Positions 20,231 through 57,667 of a stretch of DNA of 64,000 bases are shown piece by piece. Position numbers and translations under genes: made by a program. The stretch is taken from contig JACPZE010000020.1 of assembly GCA_016195685.1 (NCBI GenBank), positions 21,725 through 85,724 on the forward strand, written 5' to 3'. This DNA comes from Candidatus Gottesmanbacteria bacterium (GTDB lineage Bacteria; Patescibacteriota; Microgenomatia; 2-02-FULL-39-11). The notes under the pieces are model-generated. The model saw only the letters and a list, made by a program, of their open reading frames with translations, did not search any database and was not told the DNA's origin. The number at the start of each line of letters is the position of its first letter. Position 1 is the stretch's first letter.

Positions 20231-20238
20231 GTATTAAC

Positions 20239-26573: not shown

Positions 26574-27273
26574 AAACGATCGATAACATAAAACGGAAAT
26601 AATCCACAAGTGTTTTAAAAGAGCTTATTTTACTTTTTCCCCAGATTCGGTAGTGATAAGTGATGGGTATTTCTGCAATATTAAATCCATAACGGTTTGC
26701 ATACAAAATAAATTCCATATATGAAGGATAACCATCGTATTTGAGATTCAATCTTACTTTTTCTGCTACCTCTTTTTTCATAAATCTATAGCCTGAGCTG
26801 ATGTCTTTCACTTTTATCCCCATAATTTGAGTGACAATTTTGTTGGTTAATCGGCTGGCAATTATCTTCCATACTCTTTTTTCATCAAATCTGCCGCCTT
26901 TTATAAATCTTGATCCTATAATCAAATCAGCATAATTTTTTTTCATCATTTGAATAAATCTAGAAAGGTCAATGATATCGTGGTTTAAATCGGCGTCCAT
27001 AGTGAGGATATGCGTGGCTGTTTTATCCAGATATTGGTATCCGACTTTATATGCTTTTCCGATTCCAAGGGGCTTCTCATAATAAATATAATCAAGATAG
27101 GGTTTAGTTTTCTTGAGTTTGGCAAGAAGTTCCCTGCTTCCATCATTTCCTTGCAAGACGAAAAATATTTTAAACACGATTTTTTGCTTTTTGAACTCTT
27201 TCTCAATTTTGCTGATCAGATCATTGAGATTCCCTTTTTCATTGTAAGCTGGTATCAGCACAAAAATTTTCAT
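26563..27273 (-). CDS. GT2 glycosyltransferase (dolichol/undecaprenol-phosphate sugar synthase-like)
   Basis: MKIFVLIPAYNEKGNL...TMDADLNHD, the GT2 pattern. Confidence 0.75.
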   Translation of the reverse strand: MKIFVLIPAYNEKGNLNDLISKIEKEFKKQKIVFKIFFVLQGNDGSRELLAKLKKTKPYLDYIYYEKPLGIGKAYKVGYQYLDKTATHILTMDADLNHDIIDLSRFIQMMKKNYADLIIGSRFIKGGRFDEKRVWKIIASRLTNKIVTQIMGIKVKDISSGYRFMKKEVAEKVRLNLKYDGYPSYMEFILYANRYGFNIAEIPITYHYRIWGKSKISSFKTLVDYFRFMLSIVFNF

Positions 27274-27397
27274 AATAGGTTCACAAGTTGGTAAAAGATA
27301 AGTATACTAATTTTATAACAGAACTTACAGTGTCTGGATTAGATAAATAAGTAAATTTTTGATAAAATAGATATATAATTTCCTCTTTTACTTATTT

Positions 27398-42880: not shown

Positions 42881-44302
42881 ATGACCATGACAAATATTCT
42901 GCCCAAAAAGTTTTTCCTTGCTATATTTTTCCTCATTTCCTCATTTTTCCTATTTGTTTTTCCATCTTTTGCCCAGGAATACAAACCGGATGAGGTGGTA
43001 GTAAAAATGCGTCCTTCCAATTCTTTGGAAGAACGACTGAAATTTCACCATGAAATCGGTGCCCAACAGACTTTTCAGATAGAAAATTTAGGTGTAGATA
43101 TTTTGCATTTTGAAGGTATTCCAATAGAGCGAATTTTGGAAAGACTCAAATCTGACCCCCGGATTTTGTACGCTGAACCAAACTACAAAGCTACAGCCTT
43201 TGACATGACTAATGACCCAGCCCTTCTACAAAATCTGCAGTGGGGTTTACTTAAAGTACAAGCTGCTGCCAATACTGATAGCGCTTGGACTATCAGTAGA
43301 GGTCGATCATCAATTCAAGTGGCTGTTTTAGATACTGGAATCGATTCAAATCACCAAGATCTACAGGGCAAAGTTAGTGCATCAAAAAATTGTACTGATA
43401 GCAATACCGTCGATGATCGTTATGGTCATGGTACTCACGTATCAGGCATTATTTCTGCCGATACTAACAACGGAATCGGAGTAGCTGGTGTCGGATATAA
43501 TATTTCTCTTATCAATGCAAAGGGATTAGGAGATGATGGATCGGGGTATTATTCATGGCTTGCAGATTGTCTAGTATGGGCTACGGATAATGGAGCAAAG
43601 GTAATCAATATGAGTTTGGGTGGATCATCCGACTCGCAATTATTATCAGATGCTATAAATTATGCATGGAATAAAGGAGTGGTTCTGGTAGCTGCCGCAG
43701 GAAATTCCGGGAGTAACTCTCCTTCTTATCCTGGTTATTATTCCAATGTAATCTCGGTAGCAGCAACAGATCAAAATGACGCAAAGGCCTCTTTTTCAAA
43801 CTACGGGAATTGGGTAAAAGTGGCCGCTCCTGGAGTAGGTATTTATTCGACTTTGCCAGATACTCCCAATGCTTTCAAACAAACAACTTACGGATATGGT
43901 TCTGGTACTTCTATGGCGACACCTTTCGTATCTGGACTTGCTGGTCTTATTTTTAGTTTAGGTAATTTTGACAATACGACTGTGGTAAATTATATCCAGA
44001 ATAATGCCGACAAAATTCCCGGTACGGGGTCAAATTGGGTATATGGGAGGATCAATGCTTACCAAAGCTTGTTAGCTGCCAGAGGAACAGGGAACGTTAG
44101 ACCGAGTATATCACCTACACCTACTAATACACCAACTCCTATTCCTACTTCTACCCCCACACCGAAACCGACTTCAACTCCTACACCTACTCCCACTCCA
44201 ACGACTGCATCTATACCTGTTTCTCCCAAAGCGCCTACTCCTCCTCCAGTACCACCATGGTTAGCGAGACTTTGCAGCAGGTTGCCTATCCTTTGTCACT
44301 AA
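42881..44302 (+). CDS. secreted subtilisin-like serine protease (S8) with Pro/Thr-rich C-terminal tail
   Basis: Signal peptide. Catalytic triad motifs DTGID, HGTHVSG and GTSMATP. The C-terminal PT repeats end in WLARLCSRLPILCH. Confidence 0.85.
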   Translation: MTMTNILPKKFFLAIFFLISSFFLFVFPSFAQEYKPDEVVVKMRPSNSLEERLKFHHEIGAQQTFQIENLGVDILHFEGIPIERILERLKSDPRILYAEPNYKATAFDMTNDPALLQNLQWGLLKVQAAANTDSAWTISRGRSSIQVAVLDTGIDSNHQDLQGKVSASKNCTDSNTVDDRYGHGTHVSGIISADTNNGIGVAGVGYNISLINAKGLGDDGSGYYSWLADCLVWATDNGAKVINMSLGGSSDSQLLSDAINYAWNKGVVLVAAAGNSGSNSPSYPGYYSNVISVAATDQNDAKASFSNYGNWVKVAAPGVGIYSTLPDTPNAFKQTTYGYGSGTSMATPFVSGLAGLIFSLGNFDNTTVVNYIQNNADKIPGTGSNWVYGRINAYQSLLAARGTGNVRPSISPTPTNTPTPIPTSTPTPKPTSTPTPTPTPTTASIPVSPKAPTPPPVPPWLARLCSRLPILCH

Positions 44303-45802
44303 ATTTGGGGGATTTTTTATTCTGACAAATATAGAAGCTCGTGTGTCGCTGTAGACTATTTTCCATTTACCCATCTTTACTAATTCCATGAGTCTACGGT
44401 GGATAGGTTTGGCTGTAGTCATGAATACTACATTATAATCAGACTGGTCGATATCTTTTCTGTTTTGTTCAAATGGATAATAGTCTATAAAAGCACTATA
44501 ACCGGAACTATCTCTCCAAAGATGCATCCGTCCGTCAATACTGGGTTTTATTTCGGGGTAATTGGCGATGAGCCATCCCCCCCAATTGTAAAAAGTCATA
44601 AGTTTACCGGTGTATTTATAATTTTTCAGAAATTCTGCAGCTTGTGGTGAACATCCGATGAAATCACAGTATCTATTCCAATCTACGGCAGTTACATTTT
44701 CCGTAGGGGCTTTGGCAAATATAATATACCCGTAAAAAAACACCAAAACCAAGACACATATAGTAGCAGATATTTCAGAAAGCTTTGGTTTTATAGAAGA
44801 TATGAAAACTCTGACAACAGGGATAGATATCAAAAGCAAAACCCAGGTATATCTTCTTACTTGTATCGAGAGGATAAGAAGCAAAATTACAGGAATAATG
44901 TAATGGATATTCTTGAAGAAATTTTTCCGAAGGATAAATATCCCCAGGCTTAATATCACTAAAGCTTCCCAAAACATAAGGTTCCACCAAAGTGCGGAAA
45001 ATCTGTCAAAAGGCAGCCATTCGATGATAAATTGTTGTAGAGGATTGCCGAAATGTCGCAATGATTCTATATATATGTGTAGTCCGAAAGGGTTTATTAG
45101 TGTTGAGGTTAAGGATGAGAAAAATATCAAGCTCAAATATTTTCCTTCTCCCAAGACTTTCTTTCTTTCATCGCCGATTGAAGTTAAATAATATTTTTGC
45201 AATATATAAAATACCAACATTAAAAAGAGTATGCCCAATCCCAAGATAAACTGTCCGTGGAAATTAGACCACAGCAAAAAAAGAGGGAGAAAACACCATG
45301 CATATTTTTTCTTGCCCGCAATATATCTACTCAAAATATAATAAAGCATGGCAAAAGCAAGTAAAGTCAACTGTTGTCCACGGAACGAGACTTCTATAAA
45401 AGGTGATTCAAGGTAAAGAAGAATGGGGAATAATATTGTTTTTTCCCAAAATGTCAGGTGGGCTGCTTTAGAAAAAAAATAAAAAGTAAAAGTCATCACT
45501 AATGCACCTAATATAGATATTCCAAGAAAACTGAAGTTATGGAAAACAAGATATGTGAGAAGGTCAGTCGCCCATGAACTATTTATCCAATGGAAGCCAG
45601 CCATCATGGTAGAGAAAATATTCTCGCGGAGAACTGCGTGATGTTGGAAAAAATACTCCCCGTACTTGATATGCCAGCCCATATCTGAATCGTAAGGAAC
45701 ATACAGAGAATATGTGAAAACGATAACCAAAGGAAAAAACCGGATAAAAATATCTTTAAGAGTCTTCATTTTAATGGTGATGATTATACCATAAGGCGAC
45801 AA
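44261..45802 (-). CDS. polytopic membrane protein (GT-C-like candidate)
   Basis: At least 12 TM helices with a C-terminal soluble domain. Convergent with the S8 gene, overlapping by 42 bp. Confidence 0.45.
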   Translation of the reverse strand: MSPYGIIITIKMKTLKDIFIRFFPLVIVFTYSLYVPYDSDMGWHIKYGEYFFQHHAVLRENIFSTMMAGFHWINSSWATDLLTYLVFHNFSFLGISILGALVMTFTFYFFSKAAHLTFWEKTILFPILLYLESPFIEVSFRGQQLTLLAFAMLYYILSRYIAGKKKYAWCFLPLFLLWSNFHGQFILGLGILFLMLVFYILQKYYLTSIGDERKKVLGEGKYLSLIFFSSLTSTLINPFGLHIYIESLRHFGNPLQQFIIEWLPFDRFSALWWNLMFWEALVILSLGIFILRKNFFKNIHYIIPVILLLILSIQVRRYTWVLLLISIPVVRVFISSIKPKLSEISATICVLVLVFFYGYIIFAKAPTENVTAVDWNRYCDFIGCSPQAAEFLKNYKYTGKLMTFYNWGGWLIANYPEIKPSIDGRMHLWRDSSGYSAFIDYYPFEQNRKDIDQSDYNVVFMTTAKPIHRRLMELVKMGKWKIVYSDTRASIFVRIKNPPNLVTKDRQPAAKSR

Positions 45803-46144
45803 TACAATCTAAAGTTATTTTCGTGAAAATGCCACTTGACAAGCGTGAAAAAAATGTTTTACATTGGATATAGAGTTTGCCTGCCGCAAACGGAAGCAAT
45901 CCTGAGTTTTTACGAAGGGTTGCTTATTATTTTTGATAAAGTTTAGCACCTGCCCGGTGTAAATTTCTAGTACAAATTTAGTTAGATTACTGCCATTATG
46001 TATTGTTGTCTGCCCTCTGCCCAAGGACACACTCGAACCTCGATCCGCGAGTAACGGAACGGGGTGAGAGTGTTTTTTTGGACAGAAATTATTCTACAAG
46101 TCCCGGCGTAAAGTCGGGATGAGGAAGGGAGGTGAAATGAAATT

Positions 46145-46729
46145 ATGATAAAGAAAATTTTAACAGCATCTTTAGGATTGGGTATGGTTTTGGCTACAGT
46201 TGTTCCTGCTTTTGCAGCAATTAACATTTTCAATACCGGTCCAGGATCAAACGTGGACGCCAGATCTGACCGAGTGAAAAATCTTATATTGAATCTGACT
46301 AATAACTATACGCTCAATCACAAGTTGACTGTCAATCAGACAACCGGTAATAATAGCGCAAGCTTTAACACTGGTTCTGGACTTGCAGCTGCCGGCAATC
46401 AGACTGGAAATCATACCTCAGCGGTTGAGGCAAATTCAGTCAATTTGGATATTAACGCGACTGGTTCGTGCAATTGTGATAATAATATAACCATCAACAC
46501 CACAGGGCCGGGTTCCAATACGACTGCATCTATCAACTCAACAACAAATGTGACCCTGAATTTAACCAACAATGGTACAGTGAACAATACAGTCAAGTCT
46601 ATCGTGAATACCGGTGGTAATAGTGCCAATAATAACACTGGTAATGGTACTGCTCTCGGTGGTGATTCAAATGTGTGGACTTTAGTGACAACCAAACTTA
46701 ATTCAGTCTGGCTTAAATTAGTTATGTAA
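46145..46729 (+). CDS. secreted N-x-S/T sequon-rich repeat protein, short paralog
   Basis: Signal peptide, then two copies of the TGPGSN...NSA.NNTG.G repeat also seen in the 52443 and 53772 proteins. AGGGAGGTGA ribosome-binding site. Confidence 0.6.
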   Translation: MIKKILTASLGLGMVLATVVPAFAAINIFNTGPGSNVDARSDRVKNLILNLTNNYTLNHKLTVNQTTGNNSASFNTGSGLAAAGNQTGNHTSAVEANSVNLDINATGSCNCDNNITINTTGPGSNTTASINSTTNVTLNLTNNGTVNNTVKSIVNTGGNSANNNTGNGTALGGDSNVWTLVTTKLNSVWLKLVM

Positions 46730-46829
46730 AGTCAGTTTTTGTATTTACATCAGGGCCCCGCCTCCGGCGGGGCTCTTTTGTGGGAATCATCTTGCATCCT
46801 GATATGTTTTGATATAGAATTCGCGAAAC

Positions 46830-48398
46830 ATGATACAGAAAATTAAAAAATGGTTTTCTACGGAAAATCTTATTATTGCTGCAGTGATATTTGTAGCAAT
46901 TTTCTTCACCAAATTCCCCACTCTATATCATTGGTTAAATACGCCGAAAGGTTATTGGTATCCTAAAAATACTTCCTGGTTTGATGCATGGGATATAAAC
47001 GTATATGTTTCTTATATAAGGTACGGCCAGAAAGCTGGAGTATTTTTGGAAAATACGTATACCACGGTTCCTCATCCCAAAGAATTTATTTATCAATACT
47101 ATACTTTCCTTGGAGTATTCAACAGGTTTTTACATTTAGATCCTTTTGTACTTTTCCATCTTGCTTCCATTGCGACTTCTATAGTTCTTATCTTGGTTAC
47201 ATATTATGTCATTAAGATATTTATTGAAGACAATACTCTTCGGATAGCTGCTTTTATTATCTCTATATTAGGCGGGGGTTTTGGATGGATATCATATCTA
47301 CAGGGAGCAGACATATGGAATGCGGGATTTACTACGGTCAATGCATTTGAGCGCGGACATGACGCTCTCGGCACGGTGTTTTTACTCTTATCGATGGTAA
47401 ATATATATCTTTTTACGGCTACGAGGTCTACTAAATATCTTCTTTACGGTATTTTCTCTAGTCTAGGCAGTATTGCCATCAATCCTACATTTATAATACT
47501 TTACCTTCCTGTCTCTTTGGCAGCCACGTTTTCGGCCGAAAATAATAAACAAAGAATGAAAAGCCTAATATACCCAATTTCATTAGCGGTGATGTTTTCC
47601 ATTTATTATCTTTTATTTCTGGCCCATCTAAGTACAAATCCAGGTTTTGCAAATATTGGCCAAACAAATCTAGGAATAATCAATTCATTTAGCTTAATTT
47701 CTGGTTTTGGTTTTTTATCTATATTTTTGATGTGGACACTTATGTCCAATTATAAAAATAATAATAAGATTATTTTTGTAAATTTTTTTTTCTTAAGCCA
47801 ATTATTTTTTGTATATTTTCCGGTTGATTTCAATCTTTATTTTATAAAGGGATTATATTTATGGGGAGTAATTTTAGCTTCATATGGTTTAAATACTCTT
47901 ATAACAAATAAAAAAATTCTGAATGTAACTTCCACGGTTCTGGTACTTACAGCTATCCTGACGAGAGTGTATATATTCAATAGTTTGATGAATGCGGAAA
48001 CTCAAAATCCCTTTTTCTATTTGACTAAACCTGAAGGTGAAGCCATATCGTATATGGCAAAGTTGCCATCCGATAAGGCGGTACTTAGTCTATATAGAGT
48101 AGGTAACTATATCCCGGCCCATACTGACAATATAGTTTACTATGGTCATAAACACCAAACACCAAATGGAGAGACTACACTTAGGATGTCTCAACTTTTT
48201 TATACTTCTTTAAATGAGGAACAGCAAAGGAAATTTTTGTCGGATAATCATATAGATTATATTTATTACGGTATAGAAGAAGCTCAACTACGGAAAAATA
48301 ACAAATTGGAAATATCAACCCCTTTTCCATATTTTCCTATAGTATTTAGTAATGACTCGGTTATCGTCTTTGGAACAGGAAAAAGTGAGATTAAATAA
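46830..48398 (+). CDS. polytopic membrane protein, tandem paralog A (GT-C-like candidate)
   Basis: N-terminal KFPTLYHWLNTPKGYWYP...WFDAWD, then many TM helices. The C-terminal soluble domain matches the neighbouring paralog. Confidence 0.5.
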   Translation: MIQKIKKWFSTENLIIAAVIFVAIFFTKFPTLYHWLNTPKGYWYPKNTSWFDAWDINVYVSYIRYGQKAGVFLENTYTTVPHPKEFIYQYYTFLGVFNRFLHLDPFVLFHLASIATSIVLILVTYYVIKIFIEDNTLRIAAFIISILGGGFGWISYLQGADIWNAGFTTVNAFERGHDALGTVFLLLSMVNIYLFTATRSTKYLLYGIFSSLGSIAINPTFIILYLPVSLAATFSAENNKQRMKSLIYPISLAVMFSIYYLLFLAHLSTNPGFANIGQTNLGIINSFSLISGFGFLSIFLMWTLMSNYKNNNKIIFVNFFFLSQLFFVYFPVDFNLYFIKGLYLWGVILASYGLNTLITNKKILNVTSTVLVLTAILTRVYIFNSLMNAETQNPFFYLTKPEGEAISYMAKLPSDKAVLSLYRVGNYIPAHTDNIVYYGHKHQTPNGETTLRMSQLFYTSLNEEQQRKFLSDNHIDYIYYGIEEAQLRKNNKLEISTPFPYFPIVFSNDSVIVFGTGKSEIK

Positions 48399-48429
48399 TC
48401 CGCCAAGGCGAGATTTACAATTTAAAACT

Positions 48430-50004
48430 ATGCTAGAAAAACTGAAACGAATATTTACAAAAGAAACATTTATTGTAGCAATAGTCATATTTACTGCTAT
48501 CTTTTTGGCTAAATTTCCGACCTTATACCACTGGTTAAATACGCCAACAGGATATTGGTATCCCAAACAATCTTCTTGGTATGATGCCTGGGACAGCAAT
48601 TTCCAGGTATCGTATATACGTTTTGGACAAAACCATGGAATGATGCTGGAGAATACTTATACTACGATGCCTCATCAAGGGGTGTTTATATACCAGTATT
48701 ACACTTTACTGGGAGTCCTAAACAGATTTCTAAAACTGGATCCGTTCATCCTGTACCATCTGGCAAGTATAGTGACGAGTATAGTACTTATATTCGTTTG
48801 CTATAAATTAGTGCGTACTTTCGTACAGGATAAAATTAGCCGAATCTCAGCTTTCATCATGATAGTTCTGGGAGGAGGAGTGGGATGGATTCTCCCAAGT
48901 TTTCAATCAGCGGATAAAAATCTGGCCGGATTTACGATGGTGAATGCTTTTGAGCGGGGCCATGACGGACTTAGTACTATATTTCTCATTCTGACTTTAC
49001 TTTTCCAATATAAATTTCTGGAAAGCAATAGAAAGAGATTTATATTTTACTCCATTCTGTGCGGCTTTCTCAGTATCACTTTGCATCCGCCGTTGGCTGC
49101 CTTGTATGTTCTTTCGGGGCTACTTTTTACTATATGGGAGTTCCAAAAGAAAAAATCTATAAAGAGCTTGTTTATCCCGGTAGGGGTTGTAATACTATTT
49201 GGAATATATTTTCTGACAGTACTGGAGAAACTACTCGTAAATCCGGCATTTTCTTCTCAAGTGACGCAAAATTTATACAGTGTGGATAGTATAAATTTGC
49301 TATTGGGATTTGGAATCATTTCCTTTTTCACTCTTTATAGTCTTTTAGCAAATTTCCAAGATGATTTAAAAGTATCTGCGCTCCGAATTTTTTTCTTTGT
49401 ACAGATATTCCTTCTCTTGTCTCCACTCGGTACCCATCTTTATTTTGCAAAGGGACTTCATGTCTGGGTGGTGTTATTATCTGTGTTTGCGATAGAAAAA
49501 CTGATTCGTTCAAAAAGATGGAAATTTTTGGTTCTTACAATAGTAGTAGTATTTTCCCTTATAAACAGATTCTATATTTTTAACGACCTGATGCAGGATA
49601 AAACAAACAATCCCTTTGTTTATTTAAGTAGCTCGGAAGGTGAGGCGATCAATTTCATATCTACATTGCCGAAGGATCAGGGTGTAATTAGTCTTTATAA
49701 AATAGGAAATTATATCCCCGCCCATTCTGATCTGAGGGTTTACTATGGTCATAAATATCAAACACCAAATAGCGCTGAAACATTGCGTAAGGCACAGACA
49801 TTCTATACGTCGATGGAGGAAGTAGATCAAAGAAAATTTTTAGCTGACAATCATATAGATTATATTTACTACGGTTGGGAAGAAGCGAATCTTCGGAAAG
49901 ATAGCAAACTTGATCCCGTAAATCCCTTCTCTTATTTTCCTGTATTATTTAGTAACGATGCGGCTATCGTCTACTCAACATCGCAATCTGCCCAGCTCAA
50001 ATAA
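48430..50004 (+). CDS. polytopic membrane protein, tandem paralog B (GT-C-like candidate)
   Basis: Same architecture and long blocks of identity with 46830-48398 (KFPTLYHWLNTPTGYWYP...). The start is reassigned to the in-frame ATG at 48430, downstream of the paralog A stop. Confidence 0.5.
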   Translation: MLEKLKRIFTKETFIVAIVIFTAIFLAKFPTLYHWLNTPTGYWYPKQSSWYDAWDSNFQVSYIRFGQNHGMMLENTYTTMPHQGVFIYQYYTLLGVLNRFLKLDPFILYHLASIVTSIVLIFVCYKLVRTFVQDKISRISAFIMIVLGGGVGWILPSFQSADKNLAGFTMVNAFERGHDGLSTIFLILTLLFQYKFLESNRKRFIFYSILCGFLSITLHPPLAALYVLSGLLFTIWEFQKKKSIKSLFIPVGVVILFGIYFLTVLEKLLVNPAFSSQVTQNLYSVDSINLLLGFGIISFFTLYSLLANFQDDLKVSALRIFFFVQIFLLLSPLGTHLYFAKGLHVWVVLLSVFAIEKLIRSKRWKFLVLTIVVVFSLINRFYIFNDLMQDKTNNPFVYLSSSEGEAINFISTLPKDQGVISLYKIGNYIPAHSDLRVYYGHKYQTPNSAETLRKAQTFYTSMEEVDQRKFLADNHIDYIYYGWEEANLRKDSKLDPVNPFSYFPVLFSNDAAIVYSTSQSAQLK

Positions 50005-50006
50005 AT

Positions 50007-51167
50007 ATGCATTGGTCGAGTTCTCTTAAACAAGCTATCATCACTGCCGCGATTTTTACTTTCTGGATGCATTTCGTGGTTTATATGATAGGCAGTATTC
50101 TTTTGGGATTGGTTAAACCTCTTCCTTATTATCTAAATAATATGAAATTGGTAGAGCTTATTCCGCAAGCAAAAAACACAGGTTGGTATACGATGGTTCA
50201 CCCTTTGCAGAGATTTGATGGGCTTTGGTATAAGGAGATAGCACTACAACATTATTTTAAAAATCCCAGGAGTACCGCATTTTTTCCTCTATATCCCTTT
50301 ACTATAGAACTAATTATGATGGCAACTGGTTTCTCATTCGAACAGGCTGCTTTTGTTTTTAATTCAATTCTTCTTTTTATCTTTTTTATCCTTATATACT
50401 TTCTGGCAGCACAAAAATTCCATCAGGCAAACCCATGGCATTCTGTAGTCATCTATGCCTTTTTCCCTACAAGCTTTTTCTTACTAGCCCCTTATGCTGA
50501 TATTTTAATGCTAGATCTGATACTTTTTTCTCTTTTTGCAGCTTACGGGAAAAAATATTTTTTATCCAGTCTGGTAGCTGTACTGGTTGTAATGACAAAG
50601 CCGTTTGGGATATTTTTCATTATTCCCCTTATATACCTTTTTTATAAATCCGCTAAATCCCCCAAATTAAAGCTTATGCGACTATCTTATCTCCTCCTTT
50701 TACCGTGCGCATTTATGATTGTGGTTTTTTACCAGGATTTGATGTCAGGGACAATTGCATCTACCTTCAAATCCCAAAGTTATTGGGGAATGAAATTCAC
50801 AACTCCTTGGGGGATTGTGAAGGATTTCCTTCACATATTGAAAACATCATATAGTCTACCGACACATTTGAACTTTATTTTAGCAGTCGCTGGGTTATAT
50901 CTTCTTTTTATATCAAAAGGAGTGATCCCAAACGAGCTATGGATATATTCCTTCGTTCTCTATATGGTATTCGTATTTACATCTACAAAGTATGGCTCGA
51001 TTCCCTTTTTTAGTTTTTCAAGATATGCACTTATGCTTTTTCCCTTGTTTATTTATACAGCCAGCATAAAAGTACAAAATATAATCAAGTCTTTCTATAT
51101 AGGTATAAGTTTATTATTATTAGTAATCTTTTTCATATTTTATACTGTAGGATTTTTTGTTGCGTGA
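50007..51167 (+). CDS. polytopic membrane protein (unknown, glycosyltransferase-like topology)
   Basis: About 10 TM helices with no soluble domain. Contiguous with the paralog pair. Confidence 0.45.
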   Translation: MHWSSSLKQAIITAAIFTFWMHFVVYMIGSILLGLVKPLPYYLNNMKLVELIPQAKNTGWYTMVHPLQRFDGLWYKEIALQHYFKNPRSTAFFPLYPFTIELIMMATGFSFEQAAFVFNSILLFIFFILIYFLAAQKFHQANPWHSVVIYAFFPTSFFLLAPYADILMLDLILFSLFAAYGKKYFLSSLVAVLVVMTKPFGIFFIIPLIYLFYKSAKSPKLKLMRLSYLLLLPCAFMIVVFYQDLMSGTIASTFKSQSYWGMKFTTPWGIVKDFLHILKTSYSLPTHLNFILAVAGLYLLFISKGVIPNELWIYSFVLYMVFVFTSTKYGSIPFFSFSRYALMLFPLFIYTASIKVQNIIKSFYIGISLLLLVIFFIFYTVGFFVA

Positions 51168-51235
51168 TGACAATCTATTCTTTATTTATTATATCAATAA
51201 ATATCAAATAGTATCAAAAGATGGAATTTCGCATC

Positions 51236-51264
51236 TTGACAAGACGCGCATGATTAGATAATAT
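51236..51264 (+). promoter_or_regulatory. sigma70-type promoter
   Basis: TTGACA-N17-TAATAT, upstream of the 51304 CDS. A hairpin CCCAAAGC-N5-GCTTTGGG (51276-51296) sits between the promoter and the start. Confidence 0.45.
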
Positions 51265-51303
51265 CACCTAGCTTGCCCAAAGCTGTCCGCTTTGGGATTT
51301 ATT

Positions 51304-51927
51304 ATGGCTACAACAAAAGACGTAAGTAGACTAGATCCAGAAGTAGTTATACCAAAAATCAAAAACTTCAAACAGAAGCTGGGTGATTATATTGCTCAGA
51401 AAAAGAGATTTGTCATTTTACTAGTAATTATAGGGGTAATCCTTCTTTTCTTCGGATATAGACAGGTCCTGAAAAATTCCCGATCAAATTCAACTGCTAA
51501 AACAGTCACGGTCCAGATGGATAAGAGTTTCACTTTTGCTGCTTTGAACAATCAAGGTAAACCTACAAGTGCCAAAATCAAACTCAGGATTGTTGATGCT
51601 CAAAAAACAGACCAGGTTCTCGTGAAGGATCAGACTTACAAAGCCACAAATAACAAATTGTTTCTTATCTTCAATTTGGAATTGAAAAATGATGAAACTA
51701 CCCCACAAAATATAATGCCTGGGGATTTGGTCCGCCTAGCAGTAGCAGGAAATGAAGACACCAGGTTCGCACCGGATCTGCATAACAGTCTGGTAGGGAT
51801 AGCAGCAATATCTACCAAAAATGATCGAGTGGGATTTGTCATTCCACAAGATGCGAATAAATTTAAATTATATATAGGAGAGTTAGAGGGGAAGAAAGAA
51901 GAGATAAAGGTGGATTTTCCCTCTTGA
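51304..51927 (+). CDS. membrane-anchored hypothetical protein
   Basis: One TM helix followed by a beta-rich extracytoplasmic domain. The start is set at the first ATG; the ORF track used an upstream TTG. Confidence 0.4.
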   Translation: MATTKDVSRLDPEVVIPKIKNFKQKLGDYIAQKKRFVILLVIIGVILLFFGYRQVLKNSRSNSTAKTVTVQMDKSFTFAALNNQGKPTSAKIKLRIVDAQKTDQVLVKDQTYKATNNKLFLIFNLELKNDETTPQNIMPGDLVRLAVAGNEDTRFAPDLHNSLVGIAAISTKNDRVGFVIPQDANKFKLYIGELEGKKEEIKVDFPS

Positions 51928-52032
51928 CAAGCTAAGCCAATATTTTTTATATTGCAAGTGTTAAATAGGAAAGTATAAAAAAAGTTAATCTGCTGCCCCA
52001 GAAATAAATTCCTGTCCCCTGTCTATAAATAT

Positions 52033-52242
52033 TTGATCACATCCTGCTCAACAGCTCACTGTAAAATGGTTGATCATTCAAGCATAAAGATTACTAGAGA
52101 TTTGGTAGTAGAAATCAAGCAAGCACTCAAAAACGTAAGAGGTTGGGGTAGTGTGGAGATTTTTGTGCAAGACCATAAAGTGACACAGATAACAGAAAGA
52201 AATATAAAGAAAACAAATTTGAGTATAAAAGATTTAGATTAA
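52033..52242 (+). CDS. small DUF2292/YezD-like protein
   Basis: GWGSVEIFVQDHKVTQITE resembles the YezD family core. The start is uncertain; the alternative is the Met at 52066. Confidence 0.4.
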   Translation: MITSCSTAHCKMVDHSSIKITRDLVVEIKQALKNVRGWGSVEIFVQDHKVTQITERNIKKTNLSIKDLD

Positions 52243-52263
52243 TCAGATTACCGACCGCCAACG

Positions 52264-52314
52264 GAGGTAAGGAATCCTTGATTTATAAGAATCGGGAACC
52301 TTACCTCTTTTTTA
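52264..52314 (+). terminator. intrinsic terminator
   Basis: GAGGTAAGG-N26-CCTTACCTC followed by TTTTTTAT. Immediately 5' of it lies the 14-mer ACCGCCAACGGAGG, which recurs at 57512. Confidence 0.6.
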
Positions 52315-52442
52315 TTTATGAATATTGAATTTGTGAAATTTTTGACAATCCCGATCTGATCGGGAAACAAGGCCGAAAACCCATCCTAGGCAGAGGGCAG
52401 TAAGTCTTGCATTCTTTCAAAGAAAGGAGGTGAATATAATTT

Positions 52443-53648
52443 ATGAAAAAAATAGCAACATTAGTAGGAGCTGCAGCATTACTCGCTGCAACCCTAGTAC
52501 CAGCACTAGCTGTAAATAGCTGTGGAAACAGCACCACAGGTCCAGGTTCTAATAACACTTGTACCGTGACTAATACCAGCAACGTGTCGGTAAATAATGT
52601 GAATGATGCTCAGATAATAAATAATGTTAGAACATCATCTAATACAGGGGGAAATAGTGCCTCAAACAATACATTGGGAGGTTCTATCGTTACTGGTAAT
52701 GCTTCACTAAACACTACAGTTTCATCTGTAGCCAACGTGAACACTACCAACGTAACTGCTGGATTTGGAGGAGGTAACAATATGGGAGGCAACTCCGTAA
52801 CTGGACCTTTCTCAACAAATAATGCATTTATCACCAATGGTTATCGTGTAGATGCATACAACAGCAATACCGCCACTGTGAAAAATGATGTAAATACAAC
52901 AGCTGATACCGGTAACAATAGCGCAGACAACAATACTGGTCCAGCAACTATCCGAACAGGAAACGCATGGTTAGGAACTGGAGTTAACAATCATGTTAAC
53001 GACAGCCTGACACAAGTGGCTTTGGGTGGTGCTTCTGGAAATAACACAGCATTTAACAGCACTACTGGACCTTTCTCAGCTAACAACGCAGTAGTTACTA
53101 ACTCAGCTAATGTGACACTCAACAACGTGAATGACCTACAGGTCACCAACTGGGTTAATGTGCTTGCTAGAACTGGAAGAAATAGCGCCTCCAACAACAC
53201 GTTGGGTGGTGATATTACTACCGGAAATGCTACAGGTGGAGTTGTTGTAGGTACCGAAGGAAACATAAATACATCCTCAGTAGCTATGGCTTTAGGTGGC
53301 TTTGCCAATAACGCCAGCAGTAACGTGACAGGTCCTAGCTCTGACAACAATGCATTCATCACCAATGCTCAGAATGTAGTGGTTGACAACTGGAATGACA
53401 AATGTAGATCACACAACGCTGATAGGTTGACAGATCCTTTGTATCGTGACGGTGAAACTGGCAATAAGACGAAAGATTGTGATCCAGCAAACCTAGGTGT
53501 ATTGAATGATGTGTTTGCAAGCTCAGATGCTGGAAACAGTACGGCTAACAACAACACAGGGCCAGGTAGCGTGATGGCTGGATGGGCATCACTAGTCCAA
53601 AACGTTCTAACTCATCTTAATGACAACTTGAACGTTATCGGATTATAA
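52443..53648 (+). CDS. secreted N-x-S/T sequon-rich repeat protein (4 tandem repeats of about 88 aa)
   Basis: Signal peptide. Repeats begin at GPGSNNT, GPFSTNN, GPFSANN and GPSSDNN with a 264-nt period. The shared core is TG.NSA.NNT.GG.I.TGNA. Confidence 0.65.
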   Translation: MKKIATLVGAAALLAATLVPALAVNSCGNSTTGPGSNNTCTVTNTSNVSVNNVNDAQIINNVRTSSNTGGNSASNNTLGGSIVTGNASLNTTVSSVANVNTTNVTAGFGGGNNMGGNSVTGPFSTNNAFITNGYRVDAYNSNTATVKNDVNTTADTGNNSADNNTGPATIRTGNAWLGTGVNNHVNDSLTQVALGGASGNNTAFNSTTGPFSANNAVVTNSANVTLNNVNDLQVTNWVNVLARTGRNSASNNTLGGDITTGNATGGVVVGTEGNINTSSVAMALGGFANNASSNVTGPSSDNNAFITNAQNVVVDNWNDKCRSHNADRLTDPLYRDGETGNKTKDCDPANLGVLNDVFASSDAGNSTANNNTGPGSVMAGWASLVQNVLTHLNDNLNVIGL

Positions 53649-53771
53649 AGTTTGCCATCCCTTTCTTTTGGTGGGGATCCTTCCTAGGAATTGGGTCCCC
53701 ACCAGGAAAGACAAAATGTTTCCTGAATTCAATTCAGGATTTAGTCAATTAAGAATAGTTTATTATTATAA

Positions 53772-56192
53772 ATGTATAAATTAAGAAAATTTATAAGTCT
53801 GACGCTTATTTTTACCCTCATGTGGATGAGGGTATTGGTCGTGTTACCGGCTGCTTTTGCAGATGCTCCTGCTGTACCTACGGCTCCGACAGCGCCAAGT
53901 GCACCTACTGCACCTTCAGCTCCGACGGCTCCTTCTGCGCCTACTGCACCAAGTGCACCGACTGCGCCATCTGCCCCATCTGTGTCAAGTAGTCCACAGC
54001 CAACAGCTCCGTCTGCACCCACCGCTCCGGCTTTGCCAACCAGTGGATCTCAAAACACCACAACGTCATTGCCTACCAGTCCGCCGGAGCCTACTGCTCC
54101 TTCTTCAAATACAACTAATTCGTTAAGTGGACCAGATACAAGTAACCAAACTGGAAATTCTACGGCAGGTCCAAATTCGTCTCCTACAGGTGGTTCTGGG
54201 GATCAAAATACAAATATTAATCCTTCCGGTGATAGTAATAGTTCGTCTTCTGGGAATGTAAATGATCCGGCAAATATAAATACAGGACCTGCATCACAAA
54301 ATGCTGCTTATGAAAATCTGAATAAGAAAATGGAAGTGATGAACGAAAATCTTGCCCAATTACAAAACAAGGTTGATGCTGTTTCTGTAAGCGGATTTAA
54401 CTATGCGAACTTTAATACTTTGGATGGAAAAGTTTTTACCGGAGATACAGTTGCTACCACAAATCTCTTAAATAAGCTCAATAGTAATATGACAGGGGTT
54501 GGAGGATTTTCCGTATTTAACGTATATGGTAAATACTTAAACGATATAGTTTTCCAAATGGCCGATGGATCTGCAAACGGATCATTTAGTAATGCTTCCC
54601 CCACAGTTTCCAAAAATGTGACTACCGGTCCTGGGTCATCAAACCTAGCTGATGCTTCAAATAATTTCACCGTAAAAGAAGCCAATGGCAATGATGCGAC
54701 ACTAAATAATGATATAAACCTGAAAGCTGTATCTGGCGGAAACAGTGCTTCATATAATACAGGTAACGGAATCGTAAAGACAGGAAATGCTACGGCTGTC
54801 GGAAACGTAGTGAACATGACAAATACGAATTTAAATGTATCTCAATGGTTATGGGGAGTAGTCAATATTTTTGGAGATATGATTGGAAATATAATTCTTC
54901 CGAAAGATTCCACAAATTCAGGAAGTCCAACGGTTGCTCCTACTGCGTTAGTTGAAAATAAAGGAACAGGTCCATTATCCAATAATACTGCCAACTATAC
55001 ATCTACTGAAAATAATACTTTTGACAATAACAATACAGCTAATATAACAACCGCTGTAAATGCATCGGCAAATAGTGGAAATAATACAGCTGGAGCTAAT
55101 ACAGGAGGAGGATTTGTAGGGACGGGTGATACAAATGTAGCTGTAAGTAATTCAGTAATAGCCAATTCCAATACAGTAAAAGACGACGGTACCGTCTGGA
55201 TGGTGATCGTAAACGAAGCAGGTAAATGGGTAGGGCATATAATAGGGTCCCCGTGGGGTGCGACAACCGCTTCCAATACTTTACCTGTAGGACAAACTAC
55301 CAGTGGTGCCGGATCACAAACTTATACCGTCAATTCGCAGAATACAGGCACTGGTCCTTTGTCTGACAATACGTCTAACTATTCAGAAAACAATACTACA
55401 AATGTGACCAACGATAATACAGCTTCGATAGATAACAAAGTGACTGTATCTTCCGATACAGGCAATAATACCGCTTCAGATAATACAGGAGCTGGAGTAA
55501 TCCTGACAGGCAATGCCACTGCTGGGTTAAATGTAGTAAATATGGCAAATACCAACGTCACAGCAAAGAAATTCATTGCAATACTCGTAAATGTCTTGGG
55601 TTCTTGGTTGGGAGATGTAGTTACGCCAGATACAACCCAATCTACAGGCAATCAAACGAGTCCTGGGATAGGTGGTACTGAAATCATTGTTCTACCCACT
55701 ATTGCTCCATTGCCTACGATTCCTGCAGTTACTGGTAATAATTCTACCGATACTTCTGCAAATCAAACTCAAACTGCCGGTAATACGATCGGTAATACTA
55801 CTAGTACGGCCACATTTACCAATTACGAACCACAGACAGCTGTAAATTATGTTTATGTTTATCCTCAAGCTTATACACAAGCTGTAAATCAGGTGAATAA
55901 TGCCAGAAGAAAAGTATGGTTAACAGGGAAGACGATGAATCCATCTATGCCACAACCTTCTACTATCCAACAGCAAAGTAGAGTTATAACACGCGGACTA
56001 TTTTTGTCTGCAGCTTTTGCGAAAGCCACAGAAAGTAGTTTCCCCGGAGTCTTATTGGGTGGAGCATCGTTAAATGTGACGAGTTCATGGTTATCCATAA
56101 TTCCGTTTGCGTTATTCATATTTATTCTTCGCAGAAGGAAGAAATTTAATTTAGAAAAATATCTGAATATGTTGTTATCTATCGTTTTGTAA
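53772..56192 (+). CDS. large secreted N-x-S/T sequon-rich repeat protein with N-terminal APS/APT tandem repeats and C-terminal TM anchor
   Basis: Signal peptide. (PTAPSA)n repeats, then at least three TGP[GL]S.N...NTG.G..TGNAT repeat units. The C-terminal hydrophobic helix is followed by RRRKK. Confidence 0.62.
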   Translation: MYKLRKFISLTLIFTLMWMRVLVVLPAAFADAPAVPTAPTAPSAPTAPSAPTAPSAPTAPSAPTAPSAPSVSSSPQPTAPSAPTAPALPTSGSQNTTTSLPTSPPEPTAPSSNTTNSLSGPDTSNQTGNSTAGPNSSPTGGSGDQNTNINPSGDSNSSSSGNVNDPANINTGPASQNAAYENLNKKMEVMNENLAQLQNKVDAVSVSGFNYANFNTLDGKVFTGDTVATTNLLNKLNSNMTGVGGFSVFNVYGKYLNDIVFQMADGSANGSFSNASPTVSKNVTTGPGSSNLADASNNFTVKEANGNDATLNNDINLKAVSGGNSASYNTGNGIVKTGNATAVGNVVNMTNTNLNVSQWLWGVVNIFGDMIGNIILPKDSTNSGSPTVAPTALVENKGTGPLSNNTANYTSTENNTFDNNNTANITTAVNASANSGNNTAGANTGGGFVGTGDTNVAVSNSVIANSNTVKDDGTVWMVIVNEAGKWVGHIIGSPWGATTASNTLPVGQTTSGAGSQTYTVNSQNTGTGPLSDNTSNYSENNTTNVTNDNTASIDNKVTVSSDTGNNTASDNTGAGVILTGNATAGLNVVNMANTNVTAKKFIAILVNVLGSWLGDVVTPDTTQSTGNQTSPGIGGTEIIVLPTIAPLPTIPAVTGNNSTDTSANQTQTAGNTIGNTTSTATFTNYEPQTAVNYVYVYPQAYTQAVNQVNNARRKVWLTGKTMNPSMPQPSTIQQQSRVITRGLFLSAAFAKATESSFPGVLLGGASLNVTSSWLSIIPFALFIFILRRRKKFNLEKYLNMLLSIVL
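53870..53995 (+). repeat. tandem 18-nt (Ala-Pro-Ser/Thr) coding repeat
   Basis: Repeated gcNccNacNgcNccNtcN units encode APTAPSAPTAPS... The antisense ORF 53741-54022 is a by-product. Confidence 0.6.
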
Positions 56193-56263: not shown

Positions 56264-56791
56264 ATGAACAAAATTATAACAATTGCAGTTTTTATCTTTA
56301 TCTTGCTGATGTTCTTTCAGATTAGTACTGGTAGCTCGGTTAAGGCAGATTGGTGGATACGGCCTACAGCACAACCGACACAGCCCAGTTTTGATAGAAA
56401 TTTGGAACCAACGACTGTTGTTCATCCAACTGTAGCACCTACGAGTGAGCCGGTTCAACCGACGGTAACACCGGGGACCGTACCGACTAATCCTCCTTCG
56501 CAAGGTGGAACTGGATCACCAGACGGTGGCGGATCAAGTAATAATAATCCTTGTGCTGCCGGTCAGTCATATGTTGGACCATACTGTGGATGGTCACCAG
56601 ATGTAAATCATAGTGGTGGAGGAGGTGGAGGTAGTTCTGAATCACCAAGAATAGGAGGGCCGCAAGTATTAGGTCTTTCAAATACTTCCAGTAGTGATGT
56701 GGCCTTTTCTGATATAATGATTCTTGCCGGAGTATTATGTCTGCTAGTGTACACAAGATCAAAGATCACCACAAACAGTCAGTCACATTAA
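56264..56791 (+). CDS. small secreted Pro/Thr- and Gly-rich protein with C-terminal hydrophobic anchor
   Basis: Signal peptide, PT-rich segment, a GGGGGG run and a C-terminal TM helix. AGGGAGGTGAATAT ribosome-binding context. Confidence 0.5.
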   Translation: MNKIITIAVFIFILLMFFQISTGSSVKADWWIRPTAQPTQPSFDRNLEPTTVVHPTVAPTSEPVQPTVTPGTVPTNPPSQGGTGSPDGGGSSNNNPCAAGQSYVGPYCGWSPDVNHSGGGGGGSSESPRIGGPQVLGLSNTSSSDVAFSDIMILAGVLCLLVYTRSKITTNSQSH

Positions 56792-57411
56792 AAGAACTCC
56801 TAAAAGACGAAAAAAAACGTGTGCGTTTATATTTTCTCTTATCAGGGGTTCTTTTGGTTATATTGGGATTATTGCTTTCCAAGTCTCATAAAAATATAGA
56901 AACCAATCAGAATAAAACTGTAATCATCACTTCGACTTTAGATATCGATACATTTGCCCAAGAACCGGTAAAAATAGATAAAGCCTTAACTACTATCGAT
57001 AAACAAAACGATCAAAAGGCAAAAAATCCTCCCGTGCGTCTCACTATACCAGCCCTTCAGATTGATCTTCCCGTGAAGGAAGCAAAAGTGGTGAAAGGAT
57101 ACTGGGAAGTTTTCCCAGATAGCGCAGCTTTTGGTTTAGGCTCTTCTTACCCGGATGAAGTGGGAAATGAAGTGATATTTGCCCATGCAAGGGATGGTCT
57201 TTTTGCACCTCTGAGAAATGCGAAAGTGGGTCAAAATATAACCGTATTTACCAAAGATAAATGGTATTCTTACAAGATAAATGCAATTAAAGAAGTATTA
57301 CCAAATCAAACGGACGTTATCGGTCCTTCCAAAGATACTGTTTTGACACTTTATACCTGCAGCGGATTTTCTGACAGCAAAAGATTGATAGTGACAGCGC
57401 AAAGAATATAA
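56737..57411 (+). CDS. sortase (transpeptidase) family protein
   Basis: N-terminal TM helix. The His motif VIFAHARDG and the catalytic TLYTCSG (TLxTC) with a downstream Arg (VTAQR) are present. The start may be internal to the ORF-track call, because the 5' end overlaps the upstream gene. Confidence 0.78.
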   Translation: MSASVHKIKDHHKQSVTLKELLKDEKKRVRLYFLLSGVLLVILGLLLSKSHKNIETNQNKTVIITSTLDIDTFAQEPVKIDKALTTIDKQNDQKAKNPPVRLTIPALQIDLPVKEAKVVKGYWEVFPDSAAFGLGSSYPDEVGNEVIFAHARDGLFAPLRNAKVGQNITVFTKDKWYSYKINAIKEVLPNQTDVIGPSKDTVLTLYTCSGFSDSKRLIVTAQRI

Positions 57412-57610: not shown

Positions 57611-57631
57611 ACCGCCACAAGGCGGTTTTTT
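57611..57631 (+). terminator. leader terminator/attenuator hairpin
   Basis: ACCGCC-ACAA-GGCGGT followed by TTTTTT, 36 nt before the start codon. An upstream copy of ACCGCC lies in the 14-mer at 57512-57525. Confidence 0.5.
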
Positions 57632-57667
57632 GATGGCAAGAAGCGGATACTGTTCGCTGTATTTTAT

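Follow-up and report, generated by a model that had tools for sequence, protein, structure and literature searches.

A family of secreted beta-repeat proteins and its sortase-containing gene cassette in CPR bacteria

Three genes in a 64-kb stretch of a contig of Candidatus Gottesmanbacteria, which belongs to the Candidate Phyla Radiation (CPR)/Patescibacteria, encode paralogous proteins that consist of repeated units of about 88 amino acids (aa). The whole stretch is referred to as the window; the genome is AT-rich, with a GC content of about 36%. The three proteins are members of a large, hitherto unnamed family of secreted beta-repeat proteins. Sec-type signal peptides, a membrane-anchored paralogue, a further paralogue with a sorting signal (or a substitute for it), free paralogues and a dedicated sortase occur together in this system, and the combination is conserved across CPR phyla. 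The repeat proteins probably build a part of the cell surface of the ultra-small CPR bacteria, and in our estimate it is fairly probable that they form a coat or short fibrils of beta-repeats that are anchored there by the sortase and in the membrane.

The repeat proteins and the conserved cassette

All three genes are located on the plus strand. A194 (46145..46729) encodes a secreted protein of 194 aa with two units, and B401 (52443..53648) a secreted protein of 401 aa with four units; both have no anchor. C806 (53772..56192) encodes a membrane-anchored protein of 806 aa, again with four units. An earlier note on this DNA had described the three genes as signal-peptide paralogues of reiterated units, and the open reading frames (ORFs) and their translations turned out to be as described. 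Sec-type signal peptides can be read from the sequences of A194, B401 and C806 (AFA/A, ALA/V and AFA/D, respectively). The units were delimited by alignment in B401 (52527-52790, 52791-53054, 53055-53318 and 53319-53645), and by alignment as well as with a hidden Markov model (HMM) of the unit in A194 (46226-46492 and 46493-46726) and C806 (54273-54614, 54615-54956, 54957-55340 and 55341-55691). All ten units (2 + 4 + 4) align and share one consensus, N..TGP.S.N…N.N.A…N.V…TG.NSA..NTG.G…TGNA…N.N, in which T-G-P-x-S, N, G, A, N-T, G and N are invariant. The unit HMM detected no further copies in the window.

In B401, the TGP motif is found at aa 32, 120, 208 and 296 and thus has an exact period of 88 aa. 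At the DNA level, a seed-based repeat finder detected a 38-nt core three times in the gene (at 52800, 53064 and 53328), with a spacing of exactly 264 nt, so that the four near-regular copies with a 264-nt period that had been reported for this gene were confirmed. Tandem Repeats Finder did not detect the array, since the units share only 28-52% identity. The consensus of the orthologues revealed an (A-B)2 arrangement, in which unit 1 resembles unit 3 and unit 2 resembles unit 4. B401, which contains the Cys pairs C27/C40 and C321/C344, is 100% identical to NCBI HY029_03380. C806 is composed of the signal peptide, a proline-rich (P-T/S-A)n stretch, an N/S/T-rich linker and the four units, followed by a second linker, a conserved C-terminal segment, a transmembrane helix, the basic cluster RRRKK and a short tail. 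In the alignment, each of its units carries an additional hydrophobic, hairpin-like insert of about 25 aa.

The repeat could not be assigned to any named domain, in agreement with the earlier note. No repeat or domain model of Pfam or NCBIfam matched A194, B401 or C806 at E≤0.1, and the single NCBIfam match to C806 was a low-complexity match of 15.2 bits against a cut-off of 1700. These scans also revealed no SLH, CWB2 or other S-layer anchoring domain on the three proteins, and no Pfam match to the Curlin or Fap families. A profile of 51 B401 sequences found no match among the sequences of the PDB.

The family is large. A profile of the ten window units was searched against a database of 1.84e9 representative proteins clustered at 50% identity; it matched 3107 of them at E≤1e-3, 1737 at E≤1e-10 and 282 at E≤1e-30, with 3-10 matched stretches each. 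For B401, 129 homologues were retrieved, most of them 370-420 aa long, and none of the 129 has a precomputed Pfam domain. The members are all named 'hypothetical protein', save one with the JGI label 'microcystin-dependent protein'. The organisms named among them are Gottesman-, Curtiss-, Ames-, Woyke- and Berkelbacteria, CPR2, Microgenomates, Parcubacteria and 'Patescibacteria group', and every named member found is from the CPR/Patescibacteria. Three architecture classes can be distinguished: the A194-type with up to 260 aa, two units and no anchor, the B401-type with 331-460 aa, four units and no anchor, and the C806-type with more than 620 aa, 4-10 units and a C-terminal transmembrane helix in 65% of the proteins. 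The two-unit homologues of about 190-220 aa form a separate class, and a word-prefiltered protein search with the unit profile yielded 39 short A194-type proteins. Among 310 proteins, four units were counted in 179, five in 36, two in 35 and six in 31. Neither the family nor the cassette is described in the top-ranked titles and abstracts of the literature on CPR surface-repeat proteins and on CPR sortases and cell surfaces.

B401 and C806 are part of a cassette of six genes on one strand, in the order p211-type gene, DUF2292 gene, free four-unit gene, four-unit gene with a C-terminal transmembrane helix, gene for a sorting-signal protein, and sortase gene. The cassette recurs in more than 20 loci across CPR lineages, with partial copies at contig ends. 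For 17 loci from GTDB genomes, which were seeded by 12 close orthologues, the ORFs were compared with the window proteins; 7 further loci were obtained by exact-protein look-up, scanned with HMMs of the unit and of a neighbouring membrane protein (memb513, described below), and compared with the same window proteins. Single loci are denoted by numbers with the prefix L. Six of them (L006, L009, L010, L012, L013 and L014) are third-party-annotated metagenome-assembled genomes titled 'uncultured Gammaproteobacteria bacterium', yet they contain the CPR-type cassette. The B401 orthologue of L006 is 61% identical to the window B401, and these titles look like a placeholder or a wrong taxonomy.

The first cassette gene, p211 (51292..51927, plus strand), encodes an N-terminal transmembrane helix and a weakly DUF4352-like beta domain; the Pfam matches of the window protein and its orthologues to DUF4352 are weak (E 0.06 down to 1.6e-5). 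Its position upstream of the four-unit gene is kept in most loci. Between p211 and B401 lies an ORF of 58 aa (52066..52242, plus strand) that was missing from the list of the earlier note and matches the DUF2292 family (Pfam PF10055, 28.4 bits against a cut-off of 22). A DUF2292 gene is found at the same position in L018, L021, L022 and L023. The C-terminal transmembrane helix and the basic tail of C806 are kept in the orthologues of nearly all loci, and a two-unit A194-type gene is present near the cassette in most loci.

The gene upstream of the sortase gene, p175 (56264..56791, plus strand), encodes a small protein that has a signal peptide and is secreted. It contains the conserved motif ADWW.RP, a Pro/Thr linker, the motif CxxGxxYxGxYCGW and a sorting-signal-like C-terminus, in which …VLGLSNTSSSDVAFSD is followed by a hydrophobic helix and TRSK. 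It is the positional equivalent of LPxTG proteins with one or three units in other CPR lineages. In L013, L014, L016, L017, L020 and L022, the protein encoded before the sortase ends with LPATG, LPVTG or LPITG, a hydrophobic stretch and a basic tail. The sorting-signal protein contains three units in L013, L014, L016, L020 and L022, and one unit in L007, L009, L010, L011 and L017. The p175-type proteins of Gottesmanbacteria have lost the repeat, and the position of the pentapeptide is occupied by L-x-[LPI]-S-D, or by VAFSD in the window. A194 and B401, which end with the last unit, have no sorting signal, and C806 has no LPxTG next to its transmembrane helix and RRRKK cluster, which is followed by about 15 residues.

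The last cassette gene (56737..57411, plus strand) encodes a sortase (Pfam PF04203, 1.6e-21) that scores 48.7 bits with TIGR01076 of NCBIfam, above the cut-off of 39.35. Its catalytic residues are readable, namely the Cys of the active-site motif TLYTC, a His upstream (FAHARD) and an Arg downstream (KRLIV). None of the NCBIfam models specific for the classes A-F matched it at the respective cut-off. A sortase family has been reported to be near-ubiquitous in Microgenomates, and its substrates were not named (Méheust et al. 2019, PMC6744442). The cassette presents concrete candidate substrates and partners for this family.

Directly after the cassette, at 57668-60043 on the plus strand, a surface protein of 791 aa with long (P-T)n linkers and LamG/ConA-like and lamin-tail domains is encoded, which is kept at this position in Gottesmanbacteria. 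On the opposite strand (57664-58587), a 'GV-rich' ORF of 307 aa appears to be a mirror image of the PT repeats rather than a gene.

Expression signals were found at several sites of the region. Upstream of A194, at 45832..45866 on the plus strand, lies a promoter-like element that consists of CCACTTGACAAGC, N17 and TACATTG. A second copy on the same strand (51920-51954), which is 71% identical, is located upstream of the DUF2292 and B401 genes. The 35-nt pattern that covers both copies is CCNCTTGACAAGC, N17, TAYATTG (direct-repeat family D7), and both are among the best -35/-10 matches. The 13-mer CCNCTTGACAAGC occurs in the 64 kb only at these two elements, compared with 0.19 occurrences expected by chance. 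Because the element is shared by A194 and the DUF2292-B401 genes, co-regulation is suggested. B401 is preceded by a perfect Shine-Dalgarno motif, AAGGAGGTGA. Terminator-like hairpins are present downstream of A194 (46760-46773) and downstream of the sortase gene (57611-57626), and a hairpin with a T-run follows the DUF2292 ORF at about 52263-52312.

Composition and predicted fold of the unit

The three repeat proteins contain 13-19% Asn, compared with 5.3% in 50 other proteins of the window, among which the maximum is 9.6%. Therefore, the Asn richness is genuine and not a product of AT bias. The most sceptical interpretation is that the repeats are no meaningful feature at all, and that AT bias has produced low-complexity, Asn-rich sequences, or that the genes are targets of a diversity-generating retroelement. 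The low GC content of the genome would fit the former, and targets of such retroelements are common in the CPR and rich in AAY codons. However, the Asn content exceeds that of all of the 50 neighbours, specific columns are conserved over 1214 units, and full-length orthologues exist in the hundreds. In addition, no near-identical pair of a template and a variable repeat was found between 44 and 58 kb, and no reverse transcriptase turned up in Pfam scans of the window ORFs of at least 150 aa. The artefact interpretation is refuted by the conservation and the synteny, and we accord hardly any probability at all to this group of explanations.

The proteins contain 17, 24 and 35 N-x-S/T sequons (A194, B401 and C806, respectively), i.e. 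4.3-8.8 per 100 aa, which is 8-16 times higher than the background density of 0.54 per 100 aa in the 50 other window proteins. The earlier note had taken this saturation as a possible signal of N-glycosylation. This interpretation did not withstand a comparison with the expected frequencies. The reverse motif [ST]-x-N is equally frequent in the three proteins (16, 23 and 37). In a set of 1214 non-identical units from 310 proteins, 3991 forward sequons were counted versus 3985±49 after composition shuffling, and 4150 reverse motifs. For 51 B401 orthologues, the z-scores versus shuffling were 0.9 for the forward and 0.6 for the reverse motif. Furthermore, eight of the ten most conserved Asn columns of the unit (10, 24, 26, 32, 43, 48, 67 and 70) have S/T at the +2 position in only 1-22% of the units, and the +2 residue is mostly Ala, Val, Gly or Asn. 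Because the sequon density equals the expectation from composition, the reverse motif is as frequent and the conserved Asn are seldom part of sequons, the high density is no sign of N-glycosylation. The sequons are a by-product of the Asn/Thr/Ser-rich composition, which is concentrated on variable strand positions. Apart from a handful of sequons at the unit boundaries, neither enrichment nor sequon conservation of the kind that marks selected acceptor sites was found for the repeat family. The earlier note had named as refutation an Asn richness that mirrors AT bias together with chance sequon frequency; the sequons are indeed at chance frequency, while the Asn richness does not stem from AT bias.

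Some sequons at the unit boundaries are conserved. At columns 1 and 72 of the unit, a sequon is present in 41% and 57% of the units, respectively. In the B401 orthologues, N29-S-T is kept in 94%, N100-T-T in 88% and N276-T-S in 82%, and the boundary sequons as a whole (N-S-T before TGP and N-x-N-T-T at the unit end) are conserved in 75-94%. This conservation is as compatible with a structural role as with modification and does not distinguish between them.

Structure prediction, which had been proposed as a check, was performed for B401. The AlphaFold2 model, built from the alignment of 51 sequences, is all-beta, with a mean predicted local distance difference test score (pLDDT) of 78.4 and a predicted template modelling score (pTM) of 0.70. 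Each unit contains two long strands, the one with 28-31 and the other with about 20 residues, which are joined by the conserved segment TG.NSA..NTG..TGNA. Mean-field direct coupling analysis of the 1214 units yielded the long-range couplings (36,63), (28,69), (24,74), (34,63) and (32,67), for which i+j is 97-99, indicating antiparallel pairing of the two long strands. The Asn residues at positions 10, 24, 26 and 32 are in phase with the hydrophobic positions 12, 14, 20, 22, 28, 30, 34 and 36 and thus probably point into the core. Taken from these models, the unit appears to be a long antiparallel beta-hairpin with one hydrophobic face that includes inward-pointing Asn and another face with variable Thr/Asn/Ser, and the G/N/T-rich motifs TGP, TG.NSA..NTG and TGNA would form its turns. 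Two and four units predominate and the pTM is good, which suggests that the units form a closed module and not a polymer of indefinite length.

No matching fold was detected for the B401 model in the PDB or in BFVD using Foldseek. A solved structure would have been assigned upon a significant HMM match to a PDB chain, or upon a Foldseek match with E<1e-3 and a TM-score above 0.5, and neither was found. The top Foldseek neighbours, which are non-significant (all E≥0.009, TM-score ≤0.13), are FapC, the curlin CsgA, phage 'curlin associated' proteins and beta-helices. These neighbours bring to mind a functional amyloid or open-ended fibre, for which B401 and A194 would polymerise in cross-beta fashion, while the anchored paralogues would nucleate and hold the fibres. 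Beta repeats that are rich in Asn and have conserved Asn in register are typical of curli-like fibres, and the split into anchored and free paralogues mirrors the long and short chaplins of Streptomyces. However, apart from the very low TM-scores of the matches, the unit of 88 aa with strands of 20-31 residues differs from a strand-turn-strand rung of 18-25 aa, the unit number is mostly two or four, a confident monomeric fold is predicted, and the outward face is strongly hydrophilic. Curli- and Fap-type amyloids are characterized by short strand-turn-strand repeats of about 19-35 aa with a Q/N/S register, together with a dedicated secretion or nucleator system, and the family does not conform to this pattern. 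We thus assign only a small probability to the fibre.

A likeness extends from CsgA/CsgB and Fap to ice-binding adhesins with a Thr/Asn-faced beta-solenoid (e.g. region IV of MpIBP), with which the units share Asn-rich beta repeats, stacked Asn and a flat surface of Thr/Asn/Ser. Taken together, these proteins are the top neighbours in Foldseek, again without significance (TM-score ≤0.17, E≥0.009). The units differ from all of these in the lengths of repeat and strand, and they lack Ca2+-binding or Q/N rung motifs. Moreover, the organism lacks an outer-membrane secretion system like those used for curli and Fap.

Neighbouring membrane proteins and glycosyltransferases

The gene for memb513 (44261..45802) is located on the minus strand and encodes a polytopic membrane protein with an extracytoplasmic C-terminal domain, which has 502 aa when the NCBI start is used. 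No match was found in Pfam, NCBIfam or the sequences of the PDB. The protein was chosen for structure prediction because its homologues accompany the cassette in distant lineages, too. The AlphaFold2 model (pLDDT 93.8, pTM 0.91) retrieved 13 PDB matches in Foldseek with a probability of 1.00 and E values from 2.8e-6 to 2.1e-3, of which ten are at E ≤0.001 and three at 1.1e-3-2.1e-3. These 13 are solely C. elegans DPY19, yeast and human STT3, A. fulgidus AglB and C. lari PglB (TMq 0.41-0.59). The best E values were 2.8e-6 for DPY19, 2.8e-5 for STT3, 3.1e-5 for AglB and 1.8e-3 for PglB, and the next match has an E value of about 1. No ArnT, PMT or Emb-type member of the C-type glycosyltransferases (GT-C) is among the 50 Foldseek matches listed.

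Several residues are invariant in the memb513 family: D27-x-D29 after the first transmembrane helix, E250 (in Y-I-x-E) in a long external loop, R306, the motif Y-N-W-G-G-W after the last transmembrane helix and two Cys in the C-terminal domain. In the model, D27 and D29 are located between helix 2-20 and helix 30-43, and the topology is N-in. The invariant residues would fit a putative extracytoplasmic active site. Together with the conserved acidic first loop, the model predicts that memb513 is a GT-C of the structural type of DPY19, STT3, AglB and PglB. Its likeness to the oligosaccharyltransferases and DPY19 comprises the predicted fold, the first external loop with the invariant D-x-D, the Glu in an external loop and the extracytoplasmic C-terminal domain. 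In contrast to STT3, AglB and PglB, it has about 500 aa and about 11 predicted transmembrane helices, whereas oligosaccharyltransferase-type GT-Cs have 13, and by sequence it lacks the WWDYG and DK/MI motifs. None of 48 family members has a Pfam match to a GT-C family, STT3 and Dpy19 included. At least 402 homologues exist; in a listing of 120 of them, five organisms are named, and all of these belong to the CPR (Gottesman-, Woesebacteria, Patescibacteria group).

Linkage of memb513 to the cassette is recurrent, but not obligatory. A homologue is encoded within 10 kb of the cassette in nine loci (L001-4, L006, L009, L016, L022 and L023); in L009, it immediately follows the sortase gene. No homologue is found within 10 kb in L024 and in about half of the other cassette loci, and one of the three loci seeded with memb513 is without the cassette.

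A secreted subtilase of the S8 type, which combines a prodomain like that of fervidolysin with a tail rich in Pro and Thr, is encoded at 42881-44302 on the plus strand, and its gene is convergent with, and overlaps, the memb513 gene. It adjoins memb513 also in L001-L004, L006 and L022, a locus of the Patescibacteria group, and it lies just upstream of the cassette in L010. The subtilase is a possible processing protease.

Three further membrane proteins are encoded between A194 and the cassette. The tandem paralogues memb522 and memb550 (46830-48398 and 48352-50004, plus strand), of about 520-550 aa, are polytopic proteins with a soluble C-terminal domain that are 51% identical and share an invariant S-W-x-D-A-W-D after the first transmembrane helix. 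Searches of Pfam, NCBIfam and PDB profiles and hhalign comparisons yielded nothing significant for them. An assignment of memb522, memb550 and memb513 to the GT-C proteins by sequence was attempted and rejected, since the profile searches and the hhalign comparisons, among each other and with the PMT_2 protein of the window, were non-significant. The polytopic memb386 (50007-51167, plus strand) has no Pfam match and is weakly GT-C-like (NCBIfam AZOBR_p60025 'cell surface glycopolymer formation', E 4e-4; GPI mannosyltransferase 1 of the PDB, E 0.0036). These three proteins are found at this position in Gottesmanbacteria-type loci only.

A cluster for envelope glycosylation is located at 19466-28600. 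It includes two GT2 genes of the polyprenol-phosphate type, one of them on the minus strand, two GT4 genes, YfhO (673 aa) and PMT_2 (541 aa), and also a 458-aa protein with an S26 signal-peptidase domain, and is followed by a histidine phosphatase and a PAP2 protein. The glycosyltransferases that the earlier note had placed beside the repeat genes do exist, as GT2, GT4, YfhO and PMT_2 genes 20-27 kb upstream. The note had found no WWDYG motif of oligosaccharyltransferases in the large membrane proteins, and this was corroborated: the six-frame translation of the window contains no motif of the W-W-D-Y-G type, and no Pfam match to STT3 was found among the scanned window ORFs of at least 150 aa. 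By sequence, the proposed search for an STT3, PglB or AglB homologue was negative in the window, while the predicted fold of memb513 is the one that resembles oligosaccharyltransferases and DPY19. C-mannosylation motifs (W-x-x-W/C) were not seen in the cassette proteins by eye, with no dedicated scan; the motif is matched neither by DWW or YCGW in p175 nor by W-N-D-K-C in B401. In the literature, no link between an oligosaccharyltransferase and CPR/Patescibacteria was found.

These neighbours lead to the proposal that the repeat proteins are heavily glycosylated surface-layer proteins. Accordingly, memb513, maybe together with memb386, memb522, memb550 and the upstream GT2, YfhO and PMT_2 proteins, would glycosylate the repeat proteins after their export and before they fold, with polyprenol-linked donors from which sugars are transferred to Asn (or Ser/Thr/Trp). 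It is in favour of this proposal that the memb513 model is significantly similar only to GT-Cs that act on peptides, that the acidic residues and R306 are invariant and the Y-N-W-G-G-W motif is faintly reminiscent of WWDYG, that homologues accompany nine cassettes, that the sequon density is high with a few conserved boundary sequons, and that polyprenol-phosphate-type GT2 genes are present in the window. However, there is no sequon-specific enrichment, the conserved Asn columns are seldom sequons and columns 10, 24, 26 and 32 face the hydrophobic side, and sequence searches did not place memb513 with STT3 or Dpy19. Furthermore, the linkage is not obligatory, and a GT-C fold leaves the acceptor undefined, which could be a wall polymer or a lipid. 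On balance, we regard glycosylated surface-layer proteins of this kind as unlikely. Of the glycosylated surface protein family suggested earlier, the surface role is supported by the anchors, the sortase and the cassette, and the sequon-based N-glycosylation is not.

A peptide-type GT-C as a modifier of these or other surface proteins is nevertheless plausible on the basis of the model. If memb513 acts on proteins, this would bear on the evolution and distribution of protein glycosylation. The most far-reaching version, a glycosylated coat for which the sequence-orphan memb513 family modifies a new beta-repeat fold that is displayed by a dedicated cassette, appears decidedly unlikely; if true, the GT-C enzymes that glycosylate proteins would gain a new branch, in a bacterial superphylum from which no such enzyme is known.

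Elsewhere in the window, a protein of 766 aa (5156-7456, plus strand) contains a class I lysyl-tRNA synthetase domain (PF01921) and a C-terminal B3/4 domain (PF03483), which otherwise occurs in the beta subunit of phenylalanyl-tRNA synthetase; this looks like an unusual fusion. A DUF11-repeat protein of 223 aa (13787-14458, plus strand), encoded at a great distance from the cassette, is probably another surface protein. The window was also scanned for Rfam families and tRNA genes, and none was found.

Anchoring and assembly at the cell surface

A cell-surface role is strongly supported by the transmembrane anchor of C806, the adjacent genes for the sortase and its putative substrate, and the conservation of the cassette. 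As far as can be judged from the sequences, the cassette points to a structure that is anchored in the wall and in the membrane. In the assembly that we propose, the repeat proteins would be exported by Sec. The sortase would then link the last structural protein, encoded by cassette gene 5, to the peptidoglycan, and C806 would remain in the membrane. These two anchored proteins would hold the free B401 and A194 by like-with-like association of beta-sheets; A194 would be transcribed separately, under the same promoter-like element as B401. In this way, the surface would be covered by a hydrophilic coat or would carry short fibrils. We infer the details of the fold, the co-assembly and the function as a surface coat.

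A sortase gene at the end of the cassette, preceded by several structural genes, also resembles the pilus islands of Gram-positive bacteria, and the repeat proteins might instead be covalent pilins of a classical sortase-polymerised pilus. However, each cassette has one sorting signal, proteins of the B401 and A194 types have no hydrophobic tail, and K3, which is part of the signal peptide, is the sole invariant Lys in 51 B401 orthologues, so that there is no pilin-motif lysine. In addition, the sortase scores below the class C cut-off. A classical pilus is highly improbable because of the single sorting signal per cassette and the lack of a conserved Lys besides K3.

The anchored coat or short fibrils most resemble, by analogy, sortase-dependent surface display. 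Gram-positive LPxTG display and the CPR system have in common a sortase (here encoded in the cassette), an LPxTG-type end (in six CPR loci), Sec export and a monoderm envelope, with peptidoglycan genes nearby. In contrast to the Gram-positive system, the displayed domain is a repeat without a known family, and only one of three to four paralogues is anchored by sortase, while another has a C-terminal transmembrane helix and the rest are free. Furthermore, the signal of Gottesmanbacteria is non-canonical (L-x-[LPI]-S-D) on a substrate without the repeat, and the cassette sortase belongs to no defined class model. The mixture of anchored and free paralogues resembles the chaplins of Streptomyces, which comprise the long, sortase-anchored ChpA-C and the short, secreted ChpD-H, and for which the wall-anchored minority is thought to hold the secreted members in the surface layer. 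The likeness is one of outline: one domain family, members with different copy numbers, and a minority anchored by sortase. A relation in sequence or fold does not exist, and the chaplin domain is about 40 aa long, hydrophobic and amyloid-forming, whereas the units described here have 88 aa, are hydrophilic on the outside, occur in fixed copy numbers and have a confident monomer model. The tests run place the proteins in no named family of repeat, S-layer, amyloid or pilin proteins. The repeat fold, its family and the phylum-spanning cassette appear to be undescribed; the logic of surface display is the known one of Gram-positive bacteria.

Several points weigh against the anchored coat as we propose it. 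The window p175 has VAFSD in place of an LPxTG, though the hydrophobic segment and the basic tail are present, and its processing by the sortase is an extrapolation from other lineages. The direct coupling analysis is noisy; the top of the list consists of i,i+4-6 artefacts around positions 5-17, and only five long-range pairs were used. The closed four-unit module is deduced from the pTM and the unit counts, and proteins with five units are not rare (36 of 310), although a part of these may be mis-counted. Finally, the co-assembly of free and anchored paralogues is hypothetical.

Luef et al. are reported to have observed, in 2015, a surface layer on ultra-small groundwater bacteria, and a coat of repeat proteins is a candidate component of the surface layer on ultra-small CPR cells. 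The results also correct a tempting inference, as N-x-S/T triplets, even at a very high density, are no evidence of N-glycosylation in a beta protein that is rich in Asn and Thr. CPR/Patescibacteria represent a large share of bacterial diversity and live attached to other cells, and their envelope and host-contact proteins are almost unknown. An abundant-looking family without domain annotation, with 3107 clusters at 50% identity, thus presents a defined target for work on the CPR envelope, which may be used in cryo-electron tomography, in metaproteomics and in the few genetically tractable CPR systems.

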